Virus record (IMG/VR): IMGVR_UViG_3300033150_001311
Coordinates: 1 to 44,804 of that record
Length of the DNA stretch: 44,804 nucleotides
Reading direction: 5' to 3' (one strand)
Source: a virus
Part shown: piece by piece, positions 1 through 44,804 of the stretch
How the letters are laid out: the number at the start of each line of letters is the position of its first letter
How positions within the stretch are numbered: position 1 is the first letter of the stretch
The notes under the pieces: generated by a model
Told to the model about the DNA's origin: nothing
The model's input: only the letters and a program-made list of their open reading frames with translations
Database searches by the model: none
Made by a program: the position numbers and the translations under genes

Positions 1-114
1 AAAACAATGTTAGATATTGACCCTGAACCTTTGTCGTAGGAGTAAGCATGGGTATCAGAATTTCGTATGGAGATATAGGAGCTTACGCCCAGTTAGGGGC
101 TTTGGCAGGACAGG
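1..114. repeat. Terminal direct repeat, copy 1 (identical to 44691..44804)
   Basis: The first 114 nt are repeated exactly as the last 114 nt. The repeat covers the 3-prime end of ORF 44538..44729 and the RBS and start of ORF 48..1277, so the contig closes on itself. Confidence 0.95.
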
Positions 115-6298: not shown

Positions 6299-6580
6299 TT
6301 AATCTCCTTTCTGCTCAAAATAAATCAGGAACGCCAAGTTGCAGGCTACATGCCAGAGATGACTAAGGCCACTCTCGGAGTCTGTTTTCTCCCCACGCCG
6401 CCATGCCATCAGATGCCTCATAGTAGCCCCATATATCCGGTCGGTTTCAATCCCCTCTTTCCAGTTATCTGGCCCGTATTTCTTAGCTCCAAAAGTGAGA
6501 ACCCAACCTACCGCCTCGATAAACTCTGGTGGCACCAAATCAAGACGATTCTTGCCCTCGTCAAACTTCTTTCCCGCCAT
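6299..6580 (-). CDS. dATP/dGTP diphosphohydrolase-like (MazG-related all-alpha NTP pyrophosphohydrolase, DUF5664-type)
   Basis: 93 aa. KFDEGKNRLDLVPPEFIEAVGWVLTFGAKKYGPDNW...MRHLMAWRRGEKTDSESGLSHLWHVACNLAFL matches the remembered family consensus (D.GK.R.DL.P...GA.KYG..NW...RH..AW..GE..D.ESGL.HL.H..CN..FL). AGGAG RBS. Confidence 0.65.
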   Translation of the reverse strand: MAGKKFDEGKNRLDLVPPEFIEAVGWVLTFGAKKYGPDNWKEGIETDRIYGATMRHLMAWRRGEKTDSESGLSHLWHVACNLAFLIYFEQKGD

Positions 6581-6947
6581 CTAAAATCTCCTTTTCTTTC
6601 TTCAGTTCCTCATAGATTGCTTCTTTATCTACCTTCTGAACAGTATGATATCTCCTCAGCAGGTCATCATACCATTCTTGTCCCTTCTCTTTTCTGAGCC
6701 ACTCCGCAAATACCAGCGGAGCCTGATGGGCACTATCATTGCCAAAGACATGGCATTTGTGGCACAGGGCAATCCCGTTATTGAGCGACCACCTTGTATT
6801 GAATATCCTTCTGCCGTGGATATGGTGTGCATTTAATGGCCCCATTGCTCCGCATCTCTCGCAGCGACCGCCCGCACGTTTCTTAATTATTTCCGACCAA
6901 AGCCTGTCGAGCTTCCTGGTCATTGCTCGTTGAGATGTCTTTTTCAT
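6561..6947 (-). CDS. NinG/HNH-like zinc-finger nuclease
   Basis: LDRLWSEIIKKRAGGRCERCG...LNAHHIHGRR...NGIALCHKCH...AH. Start moved from the track start (7031) to the ATG at 6947, which has GGAG 8 nt upstream. Overlaps the 3-prime end of the protease gene. Confidence 0.55.
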   Translation of the reverse strand: MKKTSQRAMTRKLDRLWSEIIKKRAGGRCERCGAMGPLNAHHIHGRRIFNTRWSLNNGIALCHKCHVFGNDSAHQAPLVFAEWLRKEKGQEWYDDLLRRYHTVQKVDKEAIYEELKKEKEILDGGKEV

Positions 6948-7563
6948 TTTCAATCTCCGTACAAATCTCCCTATAGGTGTCCGCGAATTCTTTGAGCCGG
7001 GAGGCTGGGACACAAAGGACAATATTACCATTGCCCCCTACCACCATTCCAACTACCTGTCCCTTCTCGTTTACCAAAGGTCCGCCGGAGTTGCCGGGTG
7101 CCGCATCCGCATCAACACCAATAACGGACATCCAGAACGGCAGGGCCTTGAACTCCAAAGACGAGATAATTCCTTTCGATGTCCACAGCACAGGATTATT
7201 ATAGGGAAATCCCTTAGTGTAAACAGTATCCCCTGCTTCGTAGTGTAGGTCCCAATTGACACTTCCCTTTCTTGACACTGGAAGTATTCCGATGTCAAAG
7301 AAGGAAACAGCTCCGCCAGTAATCCACTCTGTCTCCCCATCTGCGTACTCTACCCGGAAGTTATTTCCGATATTCAAAACGTGGGCAGCGGTCATTACCA
7401 TCTTATCTCCGCAGATGAATCCGGTTCCCATGCCCATCTCTTCGTTATCCCAGTAAGCGTATATCTTCACAACCTCCGGCTCGTTTACCATGAGGGGAGA
7501 GATAATCAAGGCAAGGCCGATGGCGGCTGACAGTATTGCAACTGATGGTAATACATATCTCAT
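6883..7563 (-). CDS. Trypsin-like (S1/chymotrypsin fold) serine protease with an N-terminal signal/anchor sequence
   Basis: Catalytic motifs TAAHV (His), FFDIGIL (Asp) and GNSGGPL (Ser). The hydrophobic N-terminus is MRYVLPSVAILSAAIGLALIISPL. Start set to the ATG at 7563, which has GGAG 6 nt upstream. Confidence 0.8.
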   Translation of the reverse strand: MRYVLPSVAILSAAIGLALIISPLMVNEPEVVKIYAYWDNEEMGMGTGFICGDKMVMTAAHVLNIGNNFRVEYADGETEWITGGAVSFFDIGILPVSRKGSVNWDLHYEAGDTVYTKGFPYNNPVLWTSKGIISSLEFKALPFWMSVIGVDADAAPGNSGGPLVNEKGQVVGMVVGGNGNIVLCVPASRLKEFADTYREICTEIENEKDISTSNDQEARQALVGNN

Positions 7564-17178: not shown

Positions 17179-17206
17179 GAACAAAAAAAGTTTTTCAATG
17201 TACTAA
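17179..17206 (+). promoter_or_regulatory. Degenerate sixth copy of the promoter-like motif (GAAC-N16-TGTACTAA), rightward
   Basis: TTTTGCACGAACAAAAAAAGTTTTTCAATGTACTAAG on the plus strand, immediately upstream of the 2 x 30-bp direct repeat. Confidence 0.35.
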
Positions 17207-17265
17207 GGTAACCAGCCAACTTTTCTCAGAAGAGCAGGTAACCAGCCAGCTTTTCTGAGAAGGGG
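17206..17265. repeat. 2 x 30-bp tandem direct repeat in a non-coding region
   Basis: aggtaaccagccaacttttctcagaagagc / aggtaaccagccagcttttctgagaagggg, about 26 of 30 identical. Confidence 0.9.
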
Positions 17266-17458
17266 CGGTCTGGTCTCTGTCGAGACGATAGGGCGGTATT
17301 GTGTAGTCATTTTCTCTGATACAGTATCCGATAGAGCTTGTCTGATATAATACTTTACTTGTCTTGTCGGGTATCCTGTCCGGACGATAGTTTACCCGTT
17401 CTATCTTGTATCTGTATGGTACCTATTGAGGGCGCGAAAAAAAAACAAAAAAAAGAAT

Positions 17459-17485
17459 GAACAAAAAAAAGCAAACATCGTATAG
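17459..17485 (+). promoter_or_regulatory. Conserved promoter-like motif P3 (GAAC-N16-CGTATAG)
   Basis: A-rich tract-ATGAACAAAAAAAAGCAAACATCGTATAGTAAGC on the plus strand, about 115 nt upstream of the ATG at 17600. Divergent from P2. Confidence 0.55.
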
Positions 17486-17599
17486 TAAGCGTCAACCGGC
17501 GGCGGTTCGATGCGGTTTTCGGCGGCGTTTCTGAAAACTGTCTGTTTTCGACGTTGCCACCCGCTTTTTACAAGTTAATAGTGTTTTACGGAGCCGAAC

Positions 17600-17770
17600 A
17601 TGAATAAAGACTACAGAGTTTGTCCGGTATGCAAGCAGGAAAAGCACTTTATCGAGTTTCAGGATGTCCAATGTTCTGATAGCGTGCAAGAGTACCACGT
17701 TTGCACGGACTGCAAATCGGAGTTTCTGGACATGCAGTACACTTTTCTTGCTGATGCGGTGAAAAAGTAA
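17600..17770 (+). CDS. Small zinc-ribbon protein (56 aa)
   Basis: Not in the track because it is under 60 aa. GGAG 6 nt upstream. Translation: MNKDYRVCPVCKQEKHFIEFQDVQCSDSVQEYHVCTDCKSEFLDMQYTFLADAVKK. Confidence 0.5.
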   Translation: MNKDYRVCPVCKQEKHFIEFQDVQCSDSVQEYHVCTDCKSEFLDMQYTFLADAVKK

Positions 17771-17804
17771 AGTAAAGTTTTATTATCTTTTTCGGAGGTT
17801 TGCT

Positions 17805-17987
17805 ATGAAGGCTGAAATCAAGAACGGAAAACTCGTGATTACATTGGACGCCAACACCAAAGAACCGCCGGACAGCAAGTCCGGCAAAAGCAAAATCATT
17901 GCCACTACAGGGGGCAATGTCTTGACCGGTTTGCAGGTCAACGGCAAGCAGGTTTTCATCGGCGTCAATGCCTTTATCAAGAATTAA
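17805..17987 (+). CDS. Hypothetical small protein (60 aa)
   Basis: GGAGG 7 nt upstream of the ATG. Beta-rich sequence GKLVITLDANTKEPPDSKSGKSKIIATTGGNV... Confidence 0.6.
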   Translation: MKAEIKNGKLVITLDANTKEPPDSKSGKSKIIATTGGNVLTGLQVNGKQVFIGVNAFIKN

Positions 17988-18004
17988 GTAACGGAGACTC
18001 TAAA

Positions 18005-18121
18005 ATGCCTTGTGATATGTATGCCCGATGTAGTGAGTGCCCCTATTGGGACGCTGATATAATGGACTGTGTCTGTAGTCCTGACACGGTCTATCTGGAC
18101 ACAGACGATAGGGACGATTGA
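18005..18121 (+). CDS. Cys-rich micro-protein (38 aa)
   Basis: Not in the track. GGAG upstream. Translation: MPCDMYARCSECPYWDADIMDCVCSPDTVYLDTDDRDD. Confidence 0.4.
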   Translation: MPCDMYARCSECPYWDADIMDCVCSPDTVYLDTDDRDD

Positions 18122-18193
18122 GGATACCGACAGGCAAGGATGCCTTTTGTTTTTTAGCCCCACAGGAATATTATCGGACTATAACAAGCTATT

Positions 18194-18244
18194 AGCCGAT
18201 TTGCTGTATAAAGCCGTAGGATTGATTCTAATCGGCTTTTTTTC
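18194..18244 (+). terminator. Putative terminator of the rightward micro-operon
   Basis: AGCCGATT ... AATCGGCT (8-bp arms, 28-nt loop) followed by a T-run (TTTTTTT, 18238..18244). The long loop lowers confidence. Confidence 0.4.
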
Positions 18245-18396
18245 TTGACGGGTGTTTAGTATCGACCGCAGAGAGTTCGCCCATCCTGATGGAATCTGGT
18301 GCGTTCTGTGGCAAAATACGAAAAAGGTCGTAAAGCCAGTTGACCAGATGGACGGGAAAACCTACCAGAACAGGGAAAAAGTGGATATTGTAAGCA

Positions 18397-18425
18397 TAAA
18401 AAAAGACCGACCAAAAGGCCGGTCT
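18397..18425 (-). terminator. Rho-independent terminator of the leftward micro-ORF operon
   Basis: The minus strand reads AGACCGGCC-TTTT-GGTCGGTCT (8 of 9 bp paired) followed by TTTTTTT. Confidence 0.7.
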
Positions 18426-18473
18426 GTGGTGTGGTGGTGTGGGTGTCAACACAAGGCTAAGTAAGCCAGGATG

Positions 18474-18644
18474 CTAACAAGCAGAAGGTCGATTAACTCT
18501 TGTCTGGTCATTGCTATCGCCCCCTAAAACGGTTTCTAAAACGGCTTCTTTGATGATGATGGTGTCGCTCTGACGGTCGTAGATGTCGCCGTTATGCAAC
18601 TTCAAATAACGACCTTTGGGCTTTGTGCTGATTCTAACTTTCAT
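18474..18644 (-). CDS. Possible small protein (56 aa)
   Basis: Not in the track. The ATG at 18644 has only a weak GGGA upstream. Translation begins MKVRISTKPKGRYLKLHNGDIYDRQSD... Confidence 0.3.
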   Translation of the reverse strand: MKVRISTKPKGRYLKLHNGDIYDRQSDTIIIKEAVLETVLGGDSNDQTRVNRPSAC

Positions 18645-18660
18645 TGTCAATTTTCCCTAT

Positions 18661-18768
18661 TCAATATTCAAGCCAAACTGAGTAAATCCATGCTATTAAG
18701 CCAACTGTTCCAAACGTACCGGCCAATACCAACACCATTAAGCCAATTGCCGCAAGACCTTCAGTCAT
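18661..18768 (-). CDS. Single-pass membrane micro-protein (35 aa)
   Basis: Not in the track. ATGA overlap with the upstream gene and GGAGG upstream. Translation: MTEGLAAIGLMVLVLAGTFGTVGLIAWIYSVWLEY. Confidence 0.45.
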   Translation of the reverse strand: MTEGLAAIGLMVLVLAGTFGTVGLIAWIYSVWLEY

Positions 18769-18896
18769 TTCAACGCCTCCAGTTTGAAGTAATAGTAATT
18801 CAACAACTGCTTTAATGCCGCTTTTTCCGCAGGCTGGCAAGTGTGCAGCTTCTTGAGCACCTCCCTGTATCGCTTTTCTATCTCTCGCTTACTCAT
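18765..18896 (-). CDS. Small helical protein (43 aa)
   Basis: Not in the track. The ATG overlaps the end of 18889..19074. Translation: MSKREIEKRYREVLKKLHTCQPAEKAALKQLLNYYYFKLEALK. Confidence 0.45.
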   Translation of the reverse strand: MSKREIEKRYREVLKKLHTCQPAEKAALKQLLNYYYFKLEALK

Positions 18897-19074
18897 GGTT
18901 CAACCTCCAAGTCGTGGTTTTATCGCCTACAAGGTTCAATCCGAAACTTTCAGACTCTGCGTCGTCAAGTTTTGCCGCGTCTAACGTCCCTTCATTCGTA
19001 TTCCAGACCGTTAACCAAACCTCTGTGCTGTCGTCCAGCCCCTCCAGTGCCTTTTTCAATTCTTTGACTGTCAT
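18889..19074 (-). CDS. Small acidic protein (61 aa), first gene downstream of the sigma70-type promoter
   Basis: GGAGGG 7 nt upstream of the ATG, about 37 nt downstream of the predicted -10 element. Confidence 0.6.
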   Translation of the reverse strand: MTVKELKKALEGLDDSTEVWLTVWNTNEGTLDAAKLDDAESESFGLNLVGDKTTTWRLNHE

Positions 19075-19117
19075 AGTTCAGCCCTCCAACAAAAAACAGT
19101 ATTAACTTGTCGTATAA

Positions 19118-19146
19118 ACTATACCACACAGAGCACAGCTTGTCAA
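19118..19146 (-). promoter_or_regulatory. Near-consensus sigma70 promoter (TTGACA-17 bp-TATAGT, with TGG just upstream of the -10)
   Basis: The minus strand reads AAAAAAAGTAC-TTGACA-AGCTGTGCTCTGTGTGG-TATAGT. The -35 is at 19146..19141 and the -10 at 19123..19118. It is the best match to the canonical hexamers that I found in the window. Confidence 0.7.
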
Positions 19147-19180
19147 GTACTTTTTTTCAGCCAGCCTATAACCAAGCTTT

Positions 19181-19427
19181 CAAGTCTTTAATACTTCTTT
19201 ATCAACTACTTCAGCCGGTCAAATCCTTGACCTTTAGAGTCTTTATTATAACTATTGCTTTTTACTGATAAACTTGTTTTCAAGTCTTTTATCCTGTTTT
19301 GTCTATTGCCGGTTATTGAGTAATTGAGTCTTTATTATAACAACAGCCTTTATCTGTAGTTGAATAGTCAAGTCTTTATTACAAGAATTACTCTTTGCCG
19401 CCAAGACTGTTTTCAAGTCTTTAATAC
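19181..19427. repeat. Iteron-like array: six dispersed copies of a 14-bp motif
   Basis: Copies at 19181 caagtctttaatac, 19237 gagtctttattata, 19281 caagtcttttatcc, 19326 gagtctttattata, 19369 caagtctttattac and 19414 caagtctttaatac. All are in the same orientation, spaced 56, 44, 45, 43 and 45 bp apart, in a non-coding region. Confidence 0.8.
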
Positions 19428-19705
19428 CTTTTTATCGACTATCCCTGCGGGCCGGATTATAGACCGATAATATGCTGTGGCTTTGAGGCCCACAGGGCCT
19501 TTGTCTGTATCGTCCGTGTGAATTGAATCGGTTATGATTCTGATTGTATCGATTGTAGGGTTTATTTTGTCCGATAAAAGGCCCTTTTTCATGCCCGCGC
19601 TCAAAGGGGTACAGGTAGGTCGGGAATTCAATGAGTAGGCCCCGGGCAGGTATTAAGCAGCCAGGCAAATTTTACAAATTTTTGACCGGACAAAACCCCG
19701 ACCTG

Positions 19706-19727
19706 AAAAAATATACATATATTTTTT
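19706..19727. repeat. AT-only palindrome (10-bp arms)
   Basis: AAAAAATATA-CA-TATATTTTTT, about 280 bp from the iteron array. Confidence 0.85.
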
Positions 19728-19857
19728 GGGAACTTAATTTCCCGTAGAAGGCCTCAGATTGGCTCACAATCCATTTTCTTTTTTGGGGGGTGTCTGGTAT
19801 AGGCCAATATGAGTTCGTCGATTCTGAGCCATCCTCGTGCGTTATACGGCAATCTAA

Positions 19858-20061
19858 CTAATATAGTGCCCGCAGGGCCTCAAGAACGAGCTTTTCAAAA
19901 CCCAGGGACCTGTCGTGTGTTACATATTCTGTTTTATCCCCGGATTGTATCCTATAATTGGATATGTTTCCTCCACTAATGTTTGCAATTTCCACGATAT
20001 CCAAGACTTTCTTATCCTCTTCCACGCCAAACGGTACTATTTCTACTATTACCCTAAGCAT
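19858..20061 (-). CDS. Hypothetical protein (67 aa)
   Basis: ATG at 20061 in a TAAAATG junction with the SPFH gene stop. Confidence 0.55.
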   Translation of the reverse strand: MLRVIVEIVPFGVEEDKKVLDIVEIANISGGNISNYRIQSGDKTEYVTHDRSLGFEKLVLEALRALY

Positions 20062-20062
20062 T

Positions 20063-23172: not shown

Positions 23173-23724
23173 TTAAATAAATTGTTTATGCCTTTGTCGG
23201 TGGCAACTTCTGCAAAGCCAATCCACCTCTAATGGCTTGTTGTAGTCCTCGTGATGGGCCTGAGTTTCTGCGGGAAGTCCACACTCTTCGCAGAAGACAG
23301 AGGGCTTGAGTTCTTCGGCCTGGATAGCACAATTAACAGCATTATGTGCTCTAACTTTTTCGGGATTATTTTGCCGCCACTTTTGTACATATTCCCTGAC
23401 TTGTGCTTTGTGTCCATGTCGCCATCTTCGGTGATACTCAGCCCACCTGGCTCGGTGTTCTTGTCTCCATTTTCGCTGATATTCGGCACGTTCAGCCCTA
23501 TGCTCCTGCCTATACTTCCGATGGTACTTTACAATATCGGTTTTGTGTTCTTGATAATATTTCTGGTGGTATTCTGCAATCTTTTCCTTATTCTTCTGTC
23601 GCCATTTCCGTTTGTACTCCTCTTGACAAACCTTACATATACCCTGGCGGCCATCCTTGCTACTGTCTTTTCTGTAGAACGCGTCCAAGGGTTTTTCGAT
23701 TTTGCATTTAGAACAAACTTTCAT
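23173..23724 (-). CDS. HNH endonuclease, paralog 1 (Zn ribbon, six basic repeats, HNH)
   Basis: ATG at 23724 with AGGAGG 4 nt upstream. N-terminus CSKCKIEKPLDAFY...GRQGICKVC. Six roughly 15-aa repeats of the form EY..K(W/Y)RQ(E/K)(H/N). C-terminus FCEECGLPAETQAHHEDYNKPLEVDWLCRSCHRQRH. Confidence 0.85.
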   Translation of the reverse strand: MKVCSKCKIEKPLDAFYRKDSSKDGRQGICKVCQEEYKRKWRQKNKEKIAEYHQKYYQEHKTDIVKYHRKYRQEHRAERAEYQRKWRQEHRARWAEYHRRWRHGHKAQVREYVQKWRQNNPEKVRAHNAVNCAIQAEELKPSVFCEECGLPAETQAHHEDYNKPLEVDWLCRSCHRQRHKQFI

Positions 23725-23835
23725 GGTACCTCCTTTTTCAAAGGCCTCAATTTTTATACATATATTATAGCATATTTGAGCATAAATGTCAAGCGAAAAA
23801 TCCTCGTTTTGAAATTTTTTTTTCATATTATATTA

Positions 23836-27753: not shown

Positions 27754-29490
27754 ATGGCAAGCATTTATGATATGGACAAGAAGACGAGCTTCCCTAAGAG
27801 ACTGATAAGGGGAGCCAAGGCCTGGAAGCAGCTGGTAAAACCGGCCCTGCGAAACAGGATTAGAATATTAAATGCTCTTCAGGCTGGATATTATTCTGAA
27901 AAAGCCAAAAACCAGGTTGCGCACCCTATAAATCTCATAGACCGCGGGCTTAGTATTCTTGTTCCGTATTTGGTAATGACCAATCCGAAGATTTTGATAA
28001 GGACCGAGTATAAGGAACTTCGGCCCTTTGCTAAAACCTCGGAGCTTGCTTTTAATCACTTGATGGCAGAAATTAAATTTGCCCAGAGGACACTCCGTCC
28101 CGCTGTCCGTGATGCCCTGATGGGACTTGGGATAGTTAAAACCGGAGTAATGAAGGCCAGCGAGGTGGAACTTTTTGGGTATACGCATTCTGTTGGGGAA
28201 GTATACTCTGACCCGGTAGATTTTGTAGATTATATTGGAGACCCAACGGCCCGAGTATTTAGCGATTTTGAATTTGAGGGAAACTATTATAAGATTCCGG
28301 TCGAGGTTGCAAGAGACCTGTTTCCAAAGTTTGCAGATATACTAAATCCGACGTATTCTCTGGCCTCGGAGGATAGACAGCATTCCCCGGAGAAGTTGGC
28401 AAAGGACAACTCTGACGTAGAATCTTATGAGTCCCTGCGAGAACTTGTTGAGCTTGCGGATTTCTGGATTCCGGACGAGGGGGTTATTCTCACAATAGAG
28501 CCAAACACGGGAAAGATATTGAAGACTCGCTCTGCCGAGGCCCCGGAAGAAGGCCCATATGATAAATTGTATTTCAAGGAATTCCCGGGAACCCCGATTC
28601 CAATTCCCCCGGTATGGTATTGGATGGACTTGGATGCAGCGATAAACGTAATTGTGAATAAGATGAGGATTCAGGCGGCTTCGCAGAAGGCGGTGTTGGC
28701 CTATGAGGGGGACGCTGTTGATGATGCGGAGAGACTCGCCAGTGCGGCTGACCGGGAGGCCATTAAGGTAAGCAATGCCGACGGGATTAAAACAATCGAA
28801 TGGCCGGGAGTTGACCCGAATCAGTACAATTGGATTCAGTACTTGGAGCATCAGTACTCCATGCAGGGAAATAATCTCTACACCCTCGGCGGACGAAACG
28901 CCCAGGCGGAAACCCTTGGGCAAGAGCAGATGCTGATGGCCAATGCCTCCCGAGCTATTGATGACATGTACCAGATGGTATATGACTTCACTGCGAATGT
29001 TGCCAGGAAAGTGTGCTGGAACTTCTGGACTGACCCACTGAAAAGTATAGCTCTCTCTAAACGCATAGAGGGCGTTGGGGATGTTGAGGTAATATTTGAC
29101 AAGGCTGCACAAGACGGGGAGTTTTGGGATTATTCCCTGAAGATTGAGCCATATTCGATGCACAGACTCAATCCTCAGTTAGAATACCAGAGGATGATGG
29201 GCTTGCTTTCTCAGTGGATTCTGCCGACTGCTCAGATTGCAGCACAACAGGGTGCTATGCTTAATGTTCCTAAGGCCACGAAGCAACTTGCAAGGTTGGC
29301 AGGAATAGGGGAACTGGACGATTTTTACGAAGCTGCGGTTCCATCAAATGATATAGCTCTTAATCCGTATACTCCACAACAGGGCAAGATAAAAGAGCAC
29401 GGTGTCCAAGATGGCCAAACGGGAAGTAACCCAAACTCAACTGAAGCTAATTCAAGACAGGCACTGCAACGCCTTGGGGAGCAGTTATAA
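27754..29490 (+). CDS. Portal protein (by size and synteny)
   Basis: 578 aa, immediately downstream of terL. ATG at 27754, 8 nt after the terL stop. No motif-level confirmation possible by eye. Confidence 0.65.
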   Translation: MASIYDMDKKTSFPKRLIRGAKAWKQLVKPALRNRIRILNALQAGYYSEKAKNQVAHPINLIDRGLSILVPYLVMTNPKILIRTEYKELRPFAKTSELAFNHLMAEIKFAQRTLRPAVRDALMGLGIVKTGVMKASEVELFGYTHSVGEVYSDPVDFVDYIGDPTARVFSDFEFEGNYYKIPVEVARDLFPKFADILNPTYSLASEDRQHSPEKLAKDNSDVESYESLRELVELADFWIPDEGVILTIEPNTGKILKTRSAEAPEEGPYDKLYFKEFPGTPIPIPPVWYWMDLDAAINVIVNKMRIQAASQKAVLAYEGDAVDDAERLASAADREAIKVSNADGIKTIEWPGVDPNQYNWIQYLEHQYSMQGNNLYTLGGRNAQAETLGQEQMLMANASRAIDDMYQMVYDFTANVARKVCWNFWTDPLKSIALSKRIEGVGDVEVIFDKAAQDGEFWDYSLKIEPYSMHRLNPQLEYQRMMGLLSQWILPTAQIAAQQGAMLNVPKATKQLARLAGIGELDDFYEAAVPSNDIALNPYTPQQGKIKEHGVQDGQTGSNPNSTEANSRQALQRLGEQL

Positions 29491-29988: not shown

Positions 29989-30477
29989 ATGAGGAATATT
30001 GTTATTGGAATTGTGCTGCTGTTTGTGATGGCTCTCGTTGGTTGCCGGTCTATGCTCGACGAGATTACTCCTGCGATAATAAATGACCGCAGCATAGACT
30101 ATGCGGAGATTGAGAGGGAAGACCTCGGGAGTATTGTCTCTGTTGCGGATGCCGTAAGAGTCCGGGACGAGATTATCATAAAGCACCGCAAAACCCAGAT
30201 AGACCTGAAGAGAATTGCCGAGGACGATAAGATAGCCTATAAGGATGCCCTTGGGTTTATTGACCAGGCAATTGCTGAGTCGTATGCTCTGCAAGATATC
30301 GTCATAGGAAGTCCGGACAATCCGATAAGCATTCTGGGAATGCTGGCGCCGCTCGGCATCGGGGCTTATGTGGGTAAAGAGGCTTTCAAGCGGCGTAAGG
30401 ATTACAGCCCAGAAGAAGTTGAGGCGATTGTGGCGAAGGCTAAACAAGAGGCTCTGGAAAACAAGGGAGAAAAATAA
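29989..30477 (+). CDS. Lipoprotein with an additional C-proximal hydrophobic helix
   Basis: Signal peptide plus lipobox MRNIVIGIVLLFVMALVGC. Second hydrophobic segment ISILGMLAPLGIGAYVG, followed by a 38-aa charged tail. GGAG RBS. Confidence 0.7.
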   Translation: MRNIVIGIVLLFVMALVGCRSMLDEITPAIINDRSIDYAEIEREDLGSIVSVADAVRVRDEIIIKHRKTQIDLKRIAEDDKIAYKDALGFIDQAIAESYALQDIVIGSPDNPISILGMLAPLGIGAYVGKEAFKRRKDYSPEEVEAIVAKAKQEALENKGEK

Positions 30478-30659
30478 TGCCACAAGGAATTGGTTATAAC
30501 GAAGCTCCTCAGAAATTGTTTTTCTTTGGTAGAAAGAAGAAAAAGAAAAAGAAGAAGGAGGAGTTTAAGACGGATAGGACTAAGGACATTGAAAAAAGAC
30601 TCCGACAGGCAGGATTTACAGAGGAGGAGATTAAACGATTGAGGGGCAAAAGAAAATGA
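30477..30659 (+). CDS. Very basic small protein (60 aa) with a K8 tract
   Basis: The ATG overlaps the upstream stop (TAATG). GRKKKKKKKKEE is encoded by a purine-only tract. Confidence 0.45.
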   Translation: MPQGIGYNEAPQKLFFFGRKKKKKKKKEEFKTDRTKDIEKRLRQAGFTEEEIKRLRGKRK

Positions 30660-30883
30660 GCGACGGATTACAAAAAAGAAGAGCTGCTCGGAAAAGATAT
30701 GAGAAGGCAAGGAAGACCTCCAAGCTTGGTGCGGGGGAAAGATTCAAAGCCCTGAAGGCAGTTGCGAAGGCTTCCGGAGCCAGGAATCCGGCTGCTGTCG
30801 CGGCGGCAATAGGCCGCAAACGCTATGGAGCAAAAAAATATGCAGAATTAGCTGCCCTCGGAAGACGGAGAAAGGGGAAATGA
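30656..30883 (+). CDS. Very basic small protein (75 aa)
   Basis: ATGA overlap. Rich in K, R and A (GERFKALKAVAKASGARNPAAVAAAIGRKRYGAKKYAELAALGRRRKGK). Confidence 0.6.
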   Translation: MSDGLQKRRAARKRYEKARKTSKLGAGERFKALKAVAKASGARNPAAVAAAIGRKRYGAKKYAELAALGRRRKGK

Positions 30884-31473
30884 ACTCCGGAACTTTTCAA
30901 AAAGGGCATAAGCGTACCTTTAATAAAACCTGCGAAAGGTGTAATGAAAATTATACCGCACGGTCGGGAAATAGTAAATGGTGCGATAATTGCAGGTTGA
31001 TTTTATCAATATGCCCTGTTTGTGGCGAGCAAAAAGATATTTATGACGAAACATGTGGAAATAGTTGTGCCGGGAAATTAAAGTGGGAGCGGAGTGAAAA
31101 GCTTAACTCTCCCTGGATGAAAGCATCTCAAACCCCCGAGGTAAAAAAGAAACGTGCTATTTCTGTTGGGAAAGCTCAAAGGGGAAAACCCCGGCCAGAG
31201 CGTAGGGGAGAAAACAACCCCAATTGGAAAGGCGGAATCTATGGAACGGAAAGACATCGAGAGATGGGTCGTGTTGAGTACATCAACTGGCGTATTGCCA
31301 TTTTTGAGAGGGATGGATATAAATGTCAGATATGTAGTCAAGTTGGAGGAGACTTAAATGCCCATCATATTAAGTCGTGGAAAGATTTTCCTGAATTACG
31401 GCTTGATGTTGACAACGGCATAACTTTATGCGTTGAGTGTCATAAAAAAGTACACAGAAAGCGGGGGAAGTAA
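30880..31473 (+). CDS. HNH endonuclease (a family distinct from the three paralogs)
   Basis: N-terminal Cys pairs (CERC...CDNC, CPVCG...CGNSC), NPNWKGG, and CQICSQVGGDLNAHHIKSW...NGITLCVECHKKVH. Confidence 0.85.
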   Translation: MNSGTFQKGHKRTFNKTCERCNENYTARSGNSKWCDNCRLILSICPVCGEQKDIYDETCGNSCAGKLKWERSEKLNSPWMKASQTPEVKKKRAISVGKAQRGKPRPERRGENNPNWKGGIYGTERHREMGRVEYINWRIAIFERDGYKCQICSQVGGDLNAHHIKSWKDFPELRLDVDNGITLCVECHKKVHRKRGK

Positions 31474-31972: not shown

Positions 31973-32215
31973 ATGAGAAAAAAGCGAGATGAGGAGTATG
32001 AGTCATGGATTAACGAAGAACTGCTTAGTCTCGGCCTTCTGTTCTGCAAGAATATTCGCAGAAAGAAATTGCCAGACAGATTGATTGTTGGTGCGGAGCG
32101 CCGCGGGGATTCTATCCGGGAGTGTATTTCTGACAATCTCGATTTCCTCAGACTTGCGATAAAATATGTGCTGTTTGAGGTGGATGCGCTGGAACGGGAA
32201 AAGGAGACGAAGTGA
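31973..32215 (+). CDS. Hypothetical protein (80 aa)
   Basis: Starts 2 nt after the previous stop. Confidence 0.5.
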   Translation: MRKKRDEEYESWINEELLSLGLLFCKNIRRKKLPDRLIVGAERRGDSIRECISDNLDFLRLAIKYVLFEVDALEREKETK

Positions 32216-32561: not shown

Positions 32562-33521
32562 ATGGTTTCGCCGGATGATGAACGTATTGAAGAGATGGAT
32601 GAGAACTTAGACGCCGAGGATTCCGTAGAAGAGACTGCCGAGGAGACAGAGGATAAATCTGAAGAGAGCAAAGAGGATGGAATCCTCTCCAAGATTGCTT
32701 CGATGCTGAAACCAAAGAAGGATGAAGCGGAAGAAGACGAGGAAGAGGAAGAAGAGAATATAGAGGAAGAAGCCGGGGACGAAGAGACTGACCTCGTAAC
32801 AGATGTTTTGGGATGGGATAAAGAGGTAGTCGCTAAACTGAAAGAGCTTGACCCCGGATTGCTGGACGATGTTAAGAATCTTTTAGAAAAGCCTGCGGAT
32901 GAGGAAACCTCCGAGGAGGATGATGCAGGTGAGGAAACATCAGAGGCCATTGACTTGGACAAAATAAAGGCTCTCAAGGAGAAAGACTCTGAGGTCGGGA
33001 GTCTTGTAGAGTCTCTTGCCAAGCAGGTCGAGATGCTTTCTTCTTCGCTCCAAGCTGTTGTTTCGGAAGAGCAGCAAAGGAGAGAACAGGAAGAGCGACA
33101 GACTCTTATCAAAAACTTCCGATATGCAAATAATAAGTTGGATGAGTTGGCGAAAGACTTTCCGGTACTTGGCAGTACGTCTAAATTGCCGAAGACAGAT
33201 GATGGCCAGTACGATGTAAGAAACCGGGCTGTTAGGGAGAGAGCACGTTTATGGGATACCGCAGTGGCTCTCCAAAATGCGGGACTGGCTGAAACATTTG
33301 AAGACGCTTTTGAAGACGCTATTGCCCTGTACAAGGGAAGAAATGCTGAGAATCTCGCAAGAAGGAAAATCTCAAAGGAGTTGAGAGAGCGAGCGACCAA
33401 ATTCACAGCACGCCCCTCACACAGAAAGACAAAAGAAAAAACTCCGCCGAAGGGCAGTGATGAATACAAGGAGGCCGTCATCAAGAAAGCCATGAAGGCG
33501 GCGGGGATTGATGGAGGTTAA
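32562..33521 (+). CDS. Scaffolding protein (acidic, helical)
   Basis: 319 aa, strongly acidic with E/D runs (EEDEEEEEENIEEE). Lies immediately upstream of the capsid gene. GGAG RBS. Confidence 0.6.
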   Translation: MVSPDDERIEEMDENLDAEDSVEETAEETEDKSEESKEDGILSKIASMLKPKKDEAEEDEEEEEENIEEEAGDEETDLVTDVLGWDKEVVAKLKELDPGLLDDVKNLLEKPADEETSEEDDAGEETSEAIDLDKIKALKEKDSEVGSLVESLAKQVEMLSSSLQAVVSEEQQRREQEERQTLIKNFRYANNKLDELAKDFPVLGSTSKLPKTDDGQYDVRNRAVRERARLWDTAVALQNAGLAETFEDAFEDAIALYKGRNAENLARRKISKELRERATKFTARPSHRKTKEKTPPKGSDEYKEAVIKKAMKAAGIDGG

Positions 33522-33523
33522 TA

Positions 33524-34609
33524 ATGGGAACAGAAATTAGCATAGAACAAGCGAGAGATATTGGTCTTGCAACTCTTGAGAGCTTTAAGAAAGATGCTCT
33601 GGAGATGACGTTTAACGACGTTACCCATGAGCTTTACAACAGATGGTTCAAGGAAGCCGAGAGGGACAGCGGCGATGTCGTCAAGGCGTTCATTACACTC
33701 GGCGATGTTGGCAATGCCAAGATGGCAGGCCGGTGGGAAGAGGATACCCACAACGTTGTCAACACTGACCAGGAGATTAAGGTAGACTGGGTACATGCCA
33801 CGACCAACATGGATTACAGCCGTATCGAGTTGGCCATGCACAGTGGCAACGCGGTTAGGGTCTACAACTATCTTACCAGCAAGCAGAAGAATATGTACCG
33901 AGAATTGGCTGAGCTTTTGCAGCCCCGACTTATTCTTTCTCCGGTCAGCTCCGCGGACAAAAAGAATCCGCATGGATTGGCAAGCTGGCTTTCTCTCGGC
34001 ACAGATGATTCGTCTGGCGGATTTACTGGCTATAAGGGTAAGTATAATGATGGTTCCGGCACTGATTATGCTGTTGGTAACATCAACTCCAGTTCGAGCG
34101 TGAATCCCCGGTGGGCCTCGTATTACGCCGACCACAATGACGAATTCGGGGATGCTCTTCTCGACCTGCTGTCCCGGGCTACTCGAAAGACGCACTTCAT
34201 CCCTGCGATTATTCCCTCGCCGGTTGCGAAGGAAACCCCGGAGAATCCGTATCGGTATTACACAAACGACACCATATTGGGCAACCTTGAGGCAATGGCG
34301 AGGAAGATGGACGACAAGGTTGGTCCAGACCTGGCCAAGTACTATGGGGCGGTTTGGTTCAAGGGTGTTCCGTTTATCTACGTTGACTATCTTGACAGTG
34401 ATAATAGCACCATCATGGGCACGAACCCCATCTTTGGCGTGAACCATGAGTACTTCAAGGTAAAAGTCCTGCGGGAAAATGATTTTGTTCTTGGAACTCC
34501 TACGCCCAGGGATAACATGCACAATGTCCTGACAGTCCCGCTGGATGTGTCGTTTGCCGTGATTTGTACAAACCGCCAGAGAGCTGGATTCCTTATTAGC
34601 GGACAGTAA
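33524..34609 (+). CDS. Major capsid protein (by size and synteny)
   Basis: 361 aa, GGAGG RBS. Directly follows the scaffold-like gene and precedes the decoration-like gene. Confidence 0.7.
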   Translation: MGTEISIEQARDIGLATLESFKKDALEMTFNDVTHELYNRWFKEAERDSGDVVKAFITLGDVGNAKMAGRWEEDTHNVVNTDQEIKVDWVHATTNMDYSRIELAMHSGNAVRVYNYLTSKQKNMYRELAELLQPRLILSPVSSADKKNPHGLASWLSLGTDDSSGGFTGYKGKYNDGSGTDYAVGNINSSSSVNPRWASYYADHNDEFGDALLDLLSRATRKTHFIPAIIPSPVAKETPENPYRYYTNDTILGNLEAMARKMDDKVGPDLAKYYGAVWFKGVPFIYVDYLDSDNSTIMGTNPIFGVNHEYFKVKVLRENDFVLGTPTPRDNMHNVLTVPLDVSFAVICTNRQRAGFLISGQ

Positions 34610-36343: not shown

Positions 36344-37114
36344 ATGGATATGCGCTGGACTTTTTCGGACGTTTATAAGAAGGTGTCGGAGTTCCTCGGG
36401 CTGGGAAGCTCCCCTACTGGCGATGACCTGACTCTTGTCAAGAACATTGTCTATCGGGGCTATATGAAATTCCTAATGCCGCTGAACCCGGGGGATTCCG
36501 ATATCTATACCTGGAGTTTCCTGCGGCAGGAGTGGAAGCTCTCTATCGTTCCCAATAAATGGGAGTATGCCTTGCCAGGAGACTTCGAGCGTTTCTTTCG
36601 GGACCTGGAATATGATGCCGGGGAAAGGCTGGCTAACCTCAAGCTTGTGAGTCTGCAAACAATAATGTCGAATCGCAACGTCCTGGAGTTCAGCAGCTAT
36701 CCAGAAATGTATGCTATCAGGACTGCGAAGTTTGATAAATCGGTAGGCTCTCAGAAGGAGCTTGTGGTTTATCCAACCCCCAATGGCAGCTATACCATAA
36801 ACACCACCTATGTTATGACTCCAGCTAAGCCAGAAAATGATGATGATTACTTCATTGGCGGACCCCTGGAGAGCGAGGTGATTCTTCAGTGCTGCCTTGC
36901 GGTTGCAGAAAACGAGCAGGATGAGGTGATAGGGGTTGAAACCCAGAGAGCGGTGGATATGCTCCAGGCTCTTATCAGAAAAGACAAGGGAGAAAGTCCT
37001 AATACTGTTGGTATGGTGTATGATAGAAACATAGGATTTAATTATGACCCGATGTTCTATCGACGTTATTGGATTCCGCGTGGCACGTGGACCGTATATG
37101 GTCAAGAGATATAG
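36344..37114 (+). CDS. Structural protein, putative head-to-tail adaptor
   Basis: 256 aa. The position after the capsid genes suggests a connector or adaptor. Not verified. Confidence 0.4.
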   Translation: MDMRWTFSDVYKKVSEFLGLGSSPTGDDLTLVKNIVYRGYMKFLMPLNPGDSDIYTWSFLRQEWKLSIVPNKWEYALPGDFERFFRDLEYDAGERLANLKLVSLQTIMSNRNVLEFSSYPEMYAIRTAKFDKSVGSQKELVVYPTPNGSYTINTTYVMTPAKPENDDDYFIGGPLESEVILQCCLAVAENEQDEVIGVETQRAVDMLQALIRKDKGESPNTVGMVYDRNIGFNYDPMFYRRYWIPRGTWTVYGQEI

Positions 37115-37130: not shown

Positions 37131-37613
37131 ATGAGCGTTGGTAATGTAAATTTTGAGTTGGAAAACTCTTTTGTTGGAATGGGAATTCGCAAGGTCTCCC
37201 AGATTGTGAACTACGATGACTTCACTGATGGCGGGAGCACTACGGGTACGCTGACAATGACGAAGCAGATTCCTGCGGGTTCTTTTGTGCTTGGCTCTAA
37301 AGTAACGGTGAAGGACGGATTTACCGGCGACACCACGGCTACCCTGAAAATCGGCAAGTCCGGGGATGACGATGCTTACTCTGGCGGCACGACCCATAAC
37401 ATTGTGTCGGCTGCTTCCAATCTTGTCAAGGCAGCGAAGGCTGGCACTGACCTCGGTCCCGTTGCGGAAGGCAGTGCGGTGGATGTTGTCCTGACAGTAA
37501 CCGGGGCGTCTGATTTCACCTCCATCTCTGCGGGCAGAATGCTTGTTGAGGTGTTTTATCTGAGCACGAATGTCGAACTGACTGATAGTGGCAGGAATAA
37601 ATCGGACCTGTAA
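37131..37613 (+). CDS. Structural protein (160 aa), beta-rich
   Basis: AGGAG RBS; Gly/Thr/Ser/Val-rich. Confidence 0.5.
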   Translation: MSVGNVNFELENSFVGMGIRKVSQIVNYDDFTDGGSTTGTLTMTKQIPAGSFVLGSKVTVKDGFTGDTTATLKIGKSGDDDAYSGGTTHNIVSAASNLVKAAKAGTDLGPVAEGSAVDVVLTVTGASDFTSISAGRMLVEVFYLSTNVELTDSGRNKSDL

Positions 37614-37625
37614 TAGGAGGTAAAC

Positions 37626-37916
37626 ATGGGTTTTAGAGCTAATGCCTCTCCATCGAATATTGTATCAGGCTCCTTTGGGGTGGAGGTAATTACTCTCGAC
37701 GGGAGTGGTCTGGGCCAAGGCGCAGACCAACCTTGTCGGGAGGTAACAGTGTGGCCAGAGGCATCTAAGAGTATCAAGATTGGTGAATCCGCCAGTGCTG
37801 CGAATGGTGGCCCTGTTCTTATTGCGGATTATCTGATAATTCCAATAGAGAATACATCCCTTCTTCACTTCAAGGGTACATCAGGTGATAAAGTGTACGT
37901 ATTATGGAGGAGCTAA
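37626..37916 (+). CDS. Hypothetical structural protein (96 aa)
   Basis: AGGAGG RBS. Confidence 0.5.
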   Translation: MGFRANASPSNIVSGSFGVEVITLDGSGLGQGADQPCREVTVWPEASKSIKIGESASAANGGPVLIADYLIIPIENTSLLHFKGTSGDKVYVLWRS

Positions 37917-38046: not shown

Positions 38047-38634
38047 ATGAAAATCTGTACTAAATGTAAGGCTGAGAAGCCCTTGGGCGAGTTCAATAGT
38101 AAACAGGGCAGGTGCAAGGATTGCCAAAGGGAGTACAACCAGAAGTATTATCAAAAAACCAGAAAGAAAGCTCTGTGTCGCCAGCGGGAGTATTATCGGA
38201 AGAATAAAGAAAAGATAAGAGACTATCAACGAGAATACTACCAAAGCAATAAAGAAAAAGTGGAAGAACGCAATCGAGCTTATAGGCGGCGGCATAAGGA
38301 AAAATACTCTGCGTATTATCGGGAATACCGGAGACGGCATTCCGGGCATCTTTCGGAGTACCAGAAACAATATTTTCAGACCGAGCGGGGCAAGGAGAAT
38401 TGGAAACGGGCGAGAGAGAAGTACGCCGAAAAAAATCCTGAGAAAATAAAAGCCCGGAGGATACTTAACAACGCGGTCCGGGACGGAAAACTTGAACGCT
38501 CCGTTTTCTGCGAAAGGTGCGGGCTTCCCGCGGAAACCGAGGGACATCATCCAGACTATAGCAAACCCCTCGAAGTGGAGTGGCTTTGCAGAAACTGTCA
38601 TAGAGAAATACACAAAGAGCCGGTTTTAGTTTAG
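38047..38634 (+). CDS. HNH endonuclease, paralog 3 (Zn ribbon, about six or seven basic repeats, HNH)
   Basis: AGGAGG RBS. CTKCKAEKPLGEF...GRCKDC. C-terminus FCERCGLPAETEGHHPDYSKPLEVEWLCRNCHREIH. Ends ...KEPVLV, like paralog 2 (...KELVLV). Confidence 0.85.
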   Translation: MKICTKCKAEKPLGEFNSKQGRCKDCQREYNQKYYQKTRKKALCRQREYYRKNKEKIRDYQREYYQSNKEKVEERNRAYRRRHKEKYSAYYREYRRRHSGHLSEYQKQYFQTERGKENWKRAREKYAEKNPEKIKARRILNNAVRDGKLERSVFCERCGLPAETEGHHPDYSKPLEVEWLCRNCHREIHKEPVLV

Positions 38635-41915: not shown

Positions 41916-44529
41916 ATGGGCACCCCAAACCTTATACCAATTCCGAACCCGGACGACAAGCACGGGATAGTGCGGGCTTTGGCCAAACTGGCCTCGCTCA
42001 GACTTAACGCAGATTCCACGCCCACTTTCGCAGAATTAACTTTGACTGGACTAACCGCCTCCCGTCTGGTGGCTTCGGATTCAGACAAGGGCCTGTCCTC
42101 CGTATCTGATTTAACTGCTTGGATAGCAGGACGTATCTGATTTAACTGCTTGGATAGCAGGAACAACCGATGAGATAGAGGTTGCGGACGACGGAGATGG
42201 AACTATCACTATCGGGATTGCAGACCCCCTTATAGTGAGCAAGGGGGGCACCGGAGCCACCTCTTTAACCGACCACTCCCTGCTCGTAGGTTCCGGAACA
42301 GATGCCATCACTGCGTTGGGGGAAGCCACAGACGGACAGCTCCCCATTGGAAGTACCGGCAATGACCCCGTACTGGCGACACTGACGGGAACGTCCAACC
42401 AGATAAATATATCCAACGGTCCTGGCTCCATCACACTCTCCACTCCGCAGGATATACACACGGGCGCCTCGCCGACCTTCGTTGACATAACTCTCACTGC
42501 GTTTGATTCTTCGGAGACTATAGGCCATGTTCTCACTGATACTATAAATCCCGGAATCCTGGATGCCATCACAGTTAGCGATGACGGGGGTCGGGATATC
42601 TCTTGGACTGCCGGTGAAATCTATACGCCGAACGGAGATATTATCAGTACAGTTTCCGGAAGTTCTACTTGTACCGACAACGCCATCAACTATCTCGTAT
42701 GGAGCAGCGGAACCTCTCTGACTCTCCAGACTTCCCCGCCGTCTGACGGAGAAATAGGCATAGCAGAGATAGCAGTGGCTGCTGGGGATATCTGGGAGAT
42801 AGATGAAATCTCCATATTAAGTAGACTCTTATACGATATCCAGAGGGAACTTGTACGTACCTTCCCCATTATCGTGGAAACTGGACTGGTTGTTTCTGAG
42901 GATACGGACGCCACGAATGCTTTTGATGTTGTGTCTTCTGCCGGAGCCTACCATAGGGACATCAACAATCGGCATGTAGTTCCGCAGATATACTCAAGAA
43001 CAACTCCCATGAGGAGATGGTACCGCTCCGGCGGGGTGTGGACGAATGACACAAATGCGGAAATAGATAATACACAATACGACAACGGCACTAACCTTGT
43101 TTCCTTGTCTCCCGGAAAATGGACAAAGTCCCTGTTTCTCGTGTCTGAAGATGAGATACATTGGATTTATCCCCAAGAGGAGTTTAATAATCTGAATGCT
43201 GCCCTTGTTGGGGATTTACCGACCTTGCCCGGGGGACTGGAGGCTTTTCCACGCACTACCGCCCTCATAATGAAAGAGGGAGAAACCTCTTTTCCTCCCG
43301 CTGGGAGCGACAGGTGGATAGACGTGCGGCCTTTGTTCTCCCCTGCGGAAATAGTCTCCGCTCTTATCACACAGCACTCTTCTCTCGGGGGACTTACCGA
43401 GGACGACCATCCCCAATATCTCCTGGTTGATGGGACAAGAGCAATGTCTGGAGACCTTGACCTCGGTGGCAATGACTTATTGAACCCCGGGGTCGGACAT
43501 GACTCTTTTACAGATTTTGTTGCTAATGAACATGTAGACCATTCTACGGTAAGTATCTCCGCCGGAGGTATTCTTTCTGGCGGCGGGGATATTACTGCGA
43601 GCAGAACAATAAGTCTGGCCCAGGCAGATATCGACCACAACTCTATTACAAATACACATAACCTCACCACAGACATTGACCATGACCAATTGACCAACTA
43701 TGTCGCGGGAGAGCATTTCCTGCAAACAGACATAACAAATGTAAGCGCGGCCCTGTCTACTGGCCTGTTGAAGGTAACAACCGGAACAGGTGCCTTATCA
43801 GTTATTACGGATAATAGTGCTAACTGGGACGCTGCTTATACCCACAGCCAACTGATTTCTGGGAATCCCCACAACGTTACCCCGGCAGACTTAAGTTTGG
43901 TAATCGGAACAGACGTACAAGCATGGAGTGCAACTTTAGATGATTTGTCTGGAACTTCCGCCACTGCTGCCCAGCTTGATAGTCTTACCGACGGCTCAGT
44001 TATAAATACATTGCACCGGCATAATAAACTTGTGGGCAGCGACGGTTCCCCTGACCCCGCACTGTATGTAGACGCTGCCGGAAGAGTTGGTATAAATACC
44101 ACCAGCCCTGCGTGGCGACTTGATGTAAAATCCGTGGATACTTTTATTGGGCGTTTTATTTCCACCAATACGTCCTGCTGGTTTCATCTTACTACTGAGG
44201 GTCTCGGGGCGACGACCTCGGCGGGAATGGTCTTTGGGGTATCAGAGACTACTGGTGAGTGCTTTTTTGTGAATAAGCAGGCCTCAAAATTCCATATACT
44301 CACTGACAATACTATTCGATTCACGATGGATGGCAATGGAAAAGTGGGGATAGGAATCAGCTCCCCCAAAACAAAACTTACGGTGGAAGGAACTCTTACC
44401 TTAAAAGAACGGTCTGCCGCCGACGTGGATACTGCCGGTTACGGCCAGCTGTGGGTAAAAAATACTTCCCCCTGCCAACTCTGGTATACTGACGACACTG
44501 GAGTTGACCATCAGATTGCTTTTGTATAG
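41916..44529 (+). pseudogene. Tail fibre gene interrupted by a 31-bp tandem duplication (fragments 41916..42140 and 42235..44529)
   Basis: ORF 1 ends ...SVSDLTAWIAGRI* inside the second repeat copy. Deleting one copy fuses it in frame: ...SVSDLTAWIAG-TTDEIEVADDGDGTITIGIADPLIVSKGGTGATSLTDH..., giving one 860-aa ORF. The track M at 42235 is an internal GTG (Val) of that fused frame. Confidence 0.75.
42101..42162. repeat. Perfect 2 x 31-bp tandem duplication
   Basis: cgtatctgatttaactgcttggatagcagga occurs at 42101..42131 and again at 42132..42162. The flanking bases differ. Confidence 0.97.
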
Positions 44530-44537
44530 GAGGTCCT

Positions 44538-44729
44538 GTGAATATTTACATTGAATTGACAGATGACATGAAAAGGGCGGCCCGTTATCTGGGGTATACA
44601 AAGGAAGATATCGAGGCCGAGATAAACAGGCAATGTTCAGATTTCTTTGAGAATCTCATCGCACAGGCGAAACGCAAGTATGTCGAAAATAAAACAATGT
44701 TAGATATTGACCCTGAACCTTTGTCGTAG
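44538..44729 (+). CDS. Hypothetical protein (63 aa)
   Basis: GTG start with AGGAGG 4 nt upstream. The 3-prime end lies inside the terminal repeat. Confidence 0.5.
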   Translation: MNIYIELTDDMKRAARYLGYTKEDIEAEINRQCSDFFENLIAQAKRKYVENKTMLDIDPEPLS

Positions 44730-44804
44730 GAGTAAGCATGGGTATCAGAATTTCGTATGGAGATATAGGAGCTTACGCCCAGTTAGGGGCTTTGGCAGGA
44801 CAGG
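44691..44804. repeat. Terminal direct repeat, copy 2 (identical to 1..114)
   Basis: Exact 114-nt identity with the start of the window. Confidence 0.95.

Follow-up and report, generated by a model that had tools for sequence, protein, structure and literature searches.

A perfect 31-bp tandem duplication that splits a putative phage tail-fibre gene most likely reflects a local assembly error

Introduction

A putative tail-fibre gene that is interrupted by a perfect 31-bp tandem duplication raises the question of whether the phage has lost this protein, switches it on and off, or carries only one copy of the 31-mer and an intact gene. The duplication lies in the window, by which we mean the whole stretch of phage DNA that was analysed (44,804 nt), and an earlier note on this DNA had offered three explanations for it: a loss-of-function allele, a reversible high-frequency switch of the receptor-binding protein, and an assembly or consensus artefact. 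Here we examine the structure itself, its state in sister assemblies and relatives, and the errors that accompany it in the same data set. Our findings indicate that the duplication is most likely a local assembly or scaffold-join error rather than a biological switch.

Results

The window is a complete phage genome assembled from a short-read metagenome. It carries an exact 114-nt terminal repeat, positions 1..114 being identical to 44691..44804, and a sister contig (L006) crosses the end-to-start junction with one copy of these 114 nt, which together identify the record as a circularly assembled complete genome. The encoded proteins include a family-A DNA polymerase, a DnaB-type helicase, a primase, an SSB, a large terminase and an SU10-type adaptor; the phage is a tailed phage, and no tRNA genes were found in the window. 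The annotated open reading frame of the interrupted gene, at 42235..44529 on the + strand, yields a 764-aa product that is the representative of a JGI cluster (P0001) and is held at NCBI as MBW1931475.1, 'MAG: hypothetical protein JRI56_00310 [Deltaproteobacteria bacterium]', on a contig that is likewise 44,804 nt long, so that the phage genome is mis-binned there into a 'Deltaproteobacteria' MAG. This product is recorded on one contig only, which is the window itself. Apart from these two holdings of the 764-aa product, exact-product look-ups of the 74-, 764-, 676- and 162-aa open reading frames returned no match, and searches for close relatives in IMG/VR, INPHARED (DNA and protein), metagenome_contigs and genome_contigs returned only distant C-terminal matches.

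Two copies of the 31-mer CGTATCTGATTTAACTGCTTGGATAGCAGGA, and no more, lie head to tail in the window with 0 mismatches between them, copy 1 at 42101..42131 and copy 2, the extra copy, at 42132..42162 (both on the + strand). The perfect duplication at 42101-42162 that the earlier note had described is thus present in the deposited sequence. No other perfect tandem duplication in the 44.8 kb of the window has a unit of more than 12 nt, and no array there scores higher with TRF; none of 100 dinucleotide-preserving shuffles (0/100) matched it, and on neither flank does the homology extend beyond the 31 nt. The whole putative tail-fibre or receptor-binding protein gene spans 41916..44529 (+ strand). 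Its ATG at 41916 lies one base after the stop of an upstream 289-aa gene (TAATATG), and this single-base gap makes translational coupling of the start probable. From this ATG the frame runs to a stop at 42138-42140, which leaves a truncated N-terminal open reading frame of 74 aa (41916..42140, + strand) that ends in ...VSDLTAWIAGRI. The +1 frame is open from 42127, overlapping the first frame by 14 nt at 42127-42140 (CAGGACGTATCTGA), and its first start codon is the GTG at 42235, from which the 764 aa ending at 44529 are read. Deletion of one copy of the 31-mer in silico restores a single 860-aa open reading frame across the junction (...LTAWIAG/TTDEIEV...). The split into 74-aa and 764-aa pieces and its repair by removal of one copy, both as first proposed from the letters of the window, could therefore be reproduced, and the repaired gene is identical to an intact gene on the sister contig Ga0366836_1006977. 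The internal GTG had likewise been described as lacking a ribosome-binding site, and we find no Shine-Dalgarno-like motif within 22 nt of position 42235, although such a motif is present at 15 of the 19 other + strand starts that were checked.

The gene lies in the tail module, where it follows the SU10-type adaptor (36344-37114, PF24175), a 716-aa protein and the 289-aa protein. The 860-aa protein has no match in Pfam, PHROGs or the PDB sequences, yet it has 481 homologues, and the conserved part comprises the N-terminal and central regions. The C-termini of the homologues are mosaic, some of them with Peptidase_S74, Laminin_G_3 or Mtd_N domains, and among co-occurring strains and relatives we find C-terminal variants of 860, 933, 1016 and 670 aa. 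An AF2 model of the 764-aa piece is confident only at residues ~110-370, where it predicts a beta-rich domain, and the best Foldseek matches, at a TM of 0.3 or lower, are a phi812 baseplate protein, the tail fibre of cyanophage A-1(L) and the receptor-binding protein of the lactococcal phage p2. A conserved N-terminal anchor joined to an exchangeable, mosaic C-terminus is the organisation seen in tail fibres and receptor-binding proteins, and a place in the tail module behind the adaptor and further large structural genes is also the one expected of them. The fold matches are weak but point the same way, and the label tail fibre or receptor-binding protein is a reasonable one for what is probably the product of this gene.

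The earlier note had also proposed a comparison with related genomes, and this returned one copy in sisters and relatives alike. Sister contigs were found through exact-product look-ups of neighbouring genes, in samples 3300033141, 3300033148, 3300033149 and 3300033156, and seven contigs of the same strain were walked base by base against the circularised window, to which they show 0 mismatches over ~60 kb. Four of the sister contigs span the site (L006/L010, L007/L011, L008 and L009), and in all four the 31-mer is single-copy: they run mismatch-free with the window up to 42131 and resume at 42163, so copy 2 is missing from 4/4. The duplication is thereby absent from independent assemblies of the same strain. 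One of these contigs, Ga0366836_1006977 (L010), encodes exactly the predicted 860-aa protein (P0122). In homologues with 54-92% identity over the aligned N-terminal region the sequence is contiguous across the junction (...VSDLT.W[VI][AS]GT[AT][DN]E...), with the two flanking residues, G72 and T73, invariant in the six protein homologues that were compared, and the DNA of an 86%-identical relative (L018) has no duplication. By these comparisons the one-copy state is the ancestral one.

This result bears directly on the possibility that both pieces are made on purpose, either as a normal two-part fibre or through programmed +1 frameshifting. The feature in favour of such a design is the 14-nt overlap of the two frames and nothing beyond it. 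Within that overlap there is no slippery motif, and ...CGT ATC TGA T allows no +1 re-pairing. In the sister contigs, as in all homologues, the gene product is one polypeptide; the second piece has no Shine-Dalgarno motif before its GTG, and it would miss the conserved N-terminal 96 aa. We give a deliberate two-piece arrangement practically no chance, and an orthologue that is 100% identical in its nucleotides and encodes the intact 860 aa has effectively refuted it.

The same comparison speaks to the proposal that gain and loss of a 31-bp copy turn the receptor-binding protein on and off reversibly and at high frequency. What favours a switch is the structure itself, since a tandem duplication easily collapses again and the gene affected is one for host range. 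However, the two-copy state was seen in no other sample, and the count of one contig with two copies, four with one and 0 with three offers neither a three-copy state nor a copy-number series. The site is not repetitive in relatives (L018 and the six protein homologues), and the one-copy sequence is not flanked by any repeat that would let the duplication arise anew at high frequency. Nor is the fibre gene preferentially affected, similar lesions being spread across every gene compared, as detailed below. The switch raised by the earlier note thus finds no backing in recurrence, copy number or repeats at the site, and we hold it to be highly improbable. Were the duplication both real and reversible, the conserved N-terminal anchor of the receptor-binding protein would harbour a contingency locus within a structural gene of a phage, an adsorption toggle at the level of the population that works by duplication and collapse without an invertase or a diversity-generating retroelement (DGR), a prospect that we rate as just as slim.

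The sister contigs of the same strain differ from the window in another respect, namely 18 private deletions of 7-113 nt, with a 19th in a contig of a divergent strain. The private events in same-strain contigs come with no SNPs, and each indel is limited to one contig. In window coordinates, the 13.9-kb contig L014 has lost 47 nt at 37545, 25 nt at 38513, 38 nt at 44508 and 113 nt at 1035; the 8.3-kb contig L016 has lost 69 nt at 29130, 60 nt at 30067, 59 nt at 30557, 29 nt at 32052, 75 nt at 33556 and 74 nt at 34199; L017 (3.1 kb) lacks 79 nt at 28627, 83 nt at 29161 and 50 nt at 30157; and L019 (3.3 kb) lacks 104 nt at 43255, 64 nt at 115 and 60 nt at 1170. Single deletions are found in L008 (7.0 kb), of 7 nt at 37654, and in L009 (5.1 kb), of 37 nt at 41985, the latter being a frameshifting event in the fibre gene itself, 80 nt upstream of the duplication. 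The 29.9-kb contig L010 carries a perfect 8-bp tandem duplication at 37776 that cuts a 96-aa gene to 72 aa. The 19th deletion, of 91 nt at 43061, is in the 2.8-kb contig L015 of a ~94%-identical strain. None of the 19 deletions reaches 114 nt, just 4 of them have a length divisible by 3, with no preference for keeping frame, and microhomology at the junctions is 0-3 nt, which is the chance level. The short, poorly covered contigs have as many as 1 event per kb, the two long ones ~1 per 20 kb or more. A viable genome could not combine 0 SNPs with frameshifting deletions at up to one per kb in essential or conserved structural genes; such a pattern is what an assembler generates.

The positions of the events point in the same direction. 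For nine of 17, an event of another contig lies no more than 150 nt away, where simulations give 2.2 such events on average (P = 0.002). One join in L019 falls exactly between window positions 114 and 115, and L015, the contig of a divergent strain from the same sample, has as its last 114 nt exactly those of the window's terminal overlap, its first mismatch to the window lying immediately upstream of these shared 114 nt. The 114-nt overlap thus behaves as a branching (k-1)-mer vertex of a node-centric de Bruijn graph that is common to a second strain, which implies a final assembler k of 115, and with a (k-1)-mer vertex of 114 nt every deletion would be expected to be shorter than 114 nt. We infer an assembler of the node-centric de Bruijn type with a final k of 115 and paired-end scaffolding, of the IDBA-UD kind. 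The contig numbering, a side observation, is not sorted by size, which speaks weakly against standard sorted JGI output. Ten of the 15 amino-acid differences that a variant protein (P0125) shows in 42997-43534 sit inside the two deletions there; the polymorphic segments would accordingly be those that were dropped, which would account for the total lack of SNPs. The fibre gene is where the co-occurring strains diverge, and the duplication lies in the most variable patch of its otherwise conserved N-terminal region.

An artefact could also have arisen before assembly, through PCR or amplification template switching in vitro during library preparation, with the chimeric product then assembled. 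The many junctions without microhomology in the sister contigs could be chimeric molecules of this kind. However, the events lie at contig ends and k-mer vertices and in strain-variable patches, and they cluster across independent libraries, which points to the assembly graph and not to random chimeras; moreover, where coverage is good, one chimeric molecule by itself would be outvoted in the consensus. We therefore consider an origin in library preparation very unlikely.

Several other candidates for the duplication or the accompanying junctions were tried and set aside. Local GC at the recurrent breakpoints (0.38-0.55, against 0.47 for the genome) is unremarkable and gives no support to GC bias. 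Slippage or microhomology as the origin does not fit the 0-3 nt of microhomology found at all junctions. An untrimmed circularisation overlap at the site, with a k of 31, is contradicted by the real terminal overlap, which is 114 nt long and located at the window ends. Removal of Ns from scaffolds was rejected as the recovered loci have the same size as the recorded contigs and contain no N. Repair of CRISPR or homing-endonuclease breaks was considered for the clustered indels and rejected on the frequency of up to ~1 frameshifting deletion per kb of essential genes with no SNPs, which no viable genome could have; most events, in addition, are not close to endonuclease genes.

Discussion

The three explanations of the earlier note do not fare equally: the artefact is favoured by the single copy in 4/4 sisters and by the many private junction errors, while the switch was left without support. 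The two copies are identical and adjacent, their 31 nt fall below the apparent k-1 of 114, and the same pipeline has produced other junction errors at contig ends or graph branch points. The join at 42131/42132 thus probably belongs to the same class of error as the events in the sister contigs. IDBA-UD joins scaffolded contigs by their estimated distance and is not known to check for overlap. Under the mechanism that we propose, the graph would break at strain bubbles or where coverage is thin, and the flanking pieces would then be joined by paired-end information with their ends unaligned. Pieces separated by a short segment would lose that segment, giving a deletion shorter than k-1, and pieces that overlap by fewer than k-1 nt would have the overlap written twice, giving perfect tandem duplications such as those of 8 bp and 31 bp. 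In the window, two assembler pieces that truly overlap by 31 nt were probably concatenated end to end, with copy 1 representing the 3' end of the left-hand piece, and the real phage would carry one copy and a normal 860-aa fibre. Sequence duplicated at scaffold joins whose flanks overlap has been described by Chen, Anantharaman, Shaiber, Eren and Banfield (2020, Genome Res, PMC7111523), who found local assembly errors to be especially frequent in IDBA-UD assemblies and who recommend checking at the level of the reads, as is the practice in phage genome curation.

Not all observations sit comfortably with an error at a join. The window contig is without any other indel against its sisters over the ~24 kb compared, and so clean a contig suggests good coverage, where joins should be rare. 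Furthermore, at a k of 115 the entire 62-nt structure fits within one k-mer, so a pure path through the graph would need real reads to support it, and an error would have to arise at the stage of scaffolding or merging.

These same observations lend some weight to a real loss-of-function allele, that is, a spontaneous 31-bp duplication in the fibre gene that was abundant in one sample and faithfully assembled. The duplication is perfect and stands in the deposited record, the contig is otherwise error-free relative to its sisters, which suggests high coverage, and k-mers that span a junction at k = 115 would normally come from reads. Defective genomes of this kind could persist by complementation in co-infections. 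Against such an allele, the duplication is found in 1 of 5 assemblies of an otherwise SNP-free strain, its junction has no microhomology, and it would destroy the conserved N-terminal anchor region with no signal for a restart; moreover, an essential structural gene is unlikely to have a frameshifted form as its majority allele. The data set also yields artefactual lesions of the same type, a further private and perfect tandem duplication among them, so that a real allele would require two independent, perfect and frameshifting tandem duplications, of 8 bp and 31 bp, each confined to one of two sister populations that show no SNPs, in a data set with at least 19 other demonstrable junction errors. 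On balance, we regard a faithfully assembled allele as unlikely and a local assembly or scaffold-join error as the probable origin of the second copy.

If the artefact reading is true, the duplication is of no biological interest in itself, and its consequences lie in the databases. A truncated 764-aa 'hypothetical protein' already stands for the receptor-binding protein in JGI/IMG and at NCBI, and in the sister contigs genes are cut short or fused by deletions that nothing flags. Searches of these assemblies for pseudogenes, split genes, frameshifting or phase variation would yield false positives. The comparison of assemblies from sister samples revealed these errors without recourse to the reads and provides a filter that can be used again, its signature being 0 SNPs alongside numerous indels that stay below k-1 in length, with the breakpoints falling on k-mer vertices. 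If instead the duplication is real, it would be an ordinary loss-of-function mutation, and wider interest would attach to it only under a reversible switch.

The locus can be compared with three kinds of known system. Programmed variation of phage receptor-binding proteins is exemplified by the invertible segments of Mu G and P1 C, the diversity-generating retroelement of BPP-1 and contingency loci made of simple sequence repeats, and it requires an invertase, a reverse transcriptase with a template repeat, or long runs of 1-7 nt units. The present case shares with these systems the class of target gene, one homologue even having an Mtd_N domain (PF18454), and a change of copy number would toggle expression here too, but the locus offers a single duplicated 31-mer only, and this is missing in the sister assemblies. 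In classical phage and bacterial genetics, spontaneous tandem duplications cause frameshift mutations that can revert by loss of a copy. The likeness to these is closer, in that a perfect head-to-tail copy of some tens of bases, not a multiple of 3 in length, leads to a premature stop; unlike them, the duplication in the window is non-recurrent, lies amid artefactual junctions and is known from assembled sequence alone. The third comparison is with the scaffold-join errors of PMC7111523, in which the duplicated copies usually have Ns between them, whereas the copies in the window abut with none, a difference that counts to some extent against our preferred reading of a join error. In their other features the two would agree: sequence duplicated exactly at a join where the flanks overlap, and a consensus presumably without support, arising at strain-variable loci, that delivers broken genes into the public databases.

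Indels in the fibre gene and in sister contigs

The putative tail-fibre gene carries a further lesion in the assembly of another sample. In L009, a same-strain contig from sample 3300033149, a 37-nt deletion (window 41985-42021) lies 80 nt upstream of the 31-bp duplication and frameshifts the same gene, representing a separate and independent event. Although the same-strain JGI contigs from the sister samples contain 0 SNPs vs the window, private indels are distributed over the same-strain contigs L014, L016, L017, L019, L008, L009 and L010 and the divergent-strain contig L015, comprising 19 deletions, each 7-113 nt long, and a single tandem duplication of 8 bp. Many genes are cut short or fused by these private indels. 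These indels are probably assembly errors that have by now entered public gene catalogues. Among the affected products are a 409-aa protein reduced to 333 aa and a 914-aa fibre joined to the downstream 63-aa ORF.

Exchange of the fibre C-terminus

The C-terminal part of the fibre is exchanged between co-occurring strains (window 42775-44690 and 1-114), as seen in L015, the relative's DNA L018, the fibre strain variant P0125, and P0127. One version carries a Laminin_G_3 domain and is 670 aa long, and others measure 933 aa and 1016 aa. In L015, the divergence stops exactly where the 114-nt terminal overlap begins.

Genome organization and database placement

The ends of the window overlap by 114 nt, and its sequence represents an entire circular phage genome. 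It encodes PolA, DnaB, a primase, SSB, TerL and an SU10-type adaptor. At NCBI, the identical 44,804-nt contig is placed within a 'Deltaproteobacteria bacterium' MAG (MBW1931475.1) and therefore looks mis-binned. ORFs of at least 80 aa are absent from both strands of a region of approximately 2.9 kb (17206-20062), which holds short ORFs only and includes an imperfect tandem repeat of 30 bp in 1.9 copies (17206-17262). A small tandem repeat at 33297-33324, with 2.3 copies of the 12-bp unit TTTGAAGACGCT, falls within a 319-aa ORF and leaves its frame unbroken because its length is a multiple of three. Four free-standing endonuclease genes are found at 6561-7031 (-), 23173-23826 (-), 30880-31473 (+) and 38047-38634 (+), two of the HNH type and two PHROG 2340/endonuclease VII-like; one is located within the tail module and another adjoins the DNA polymerase gene, and all four may be homing endonucleases.
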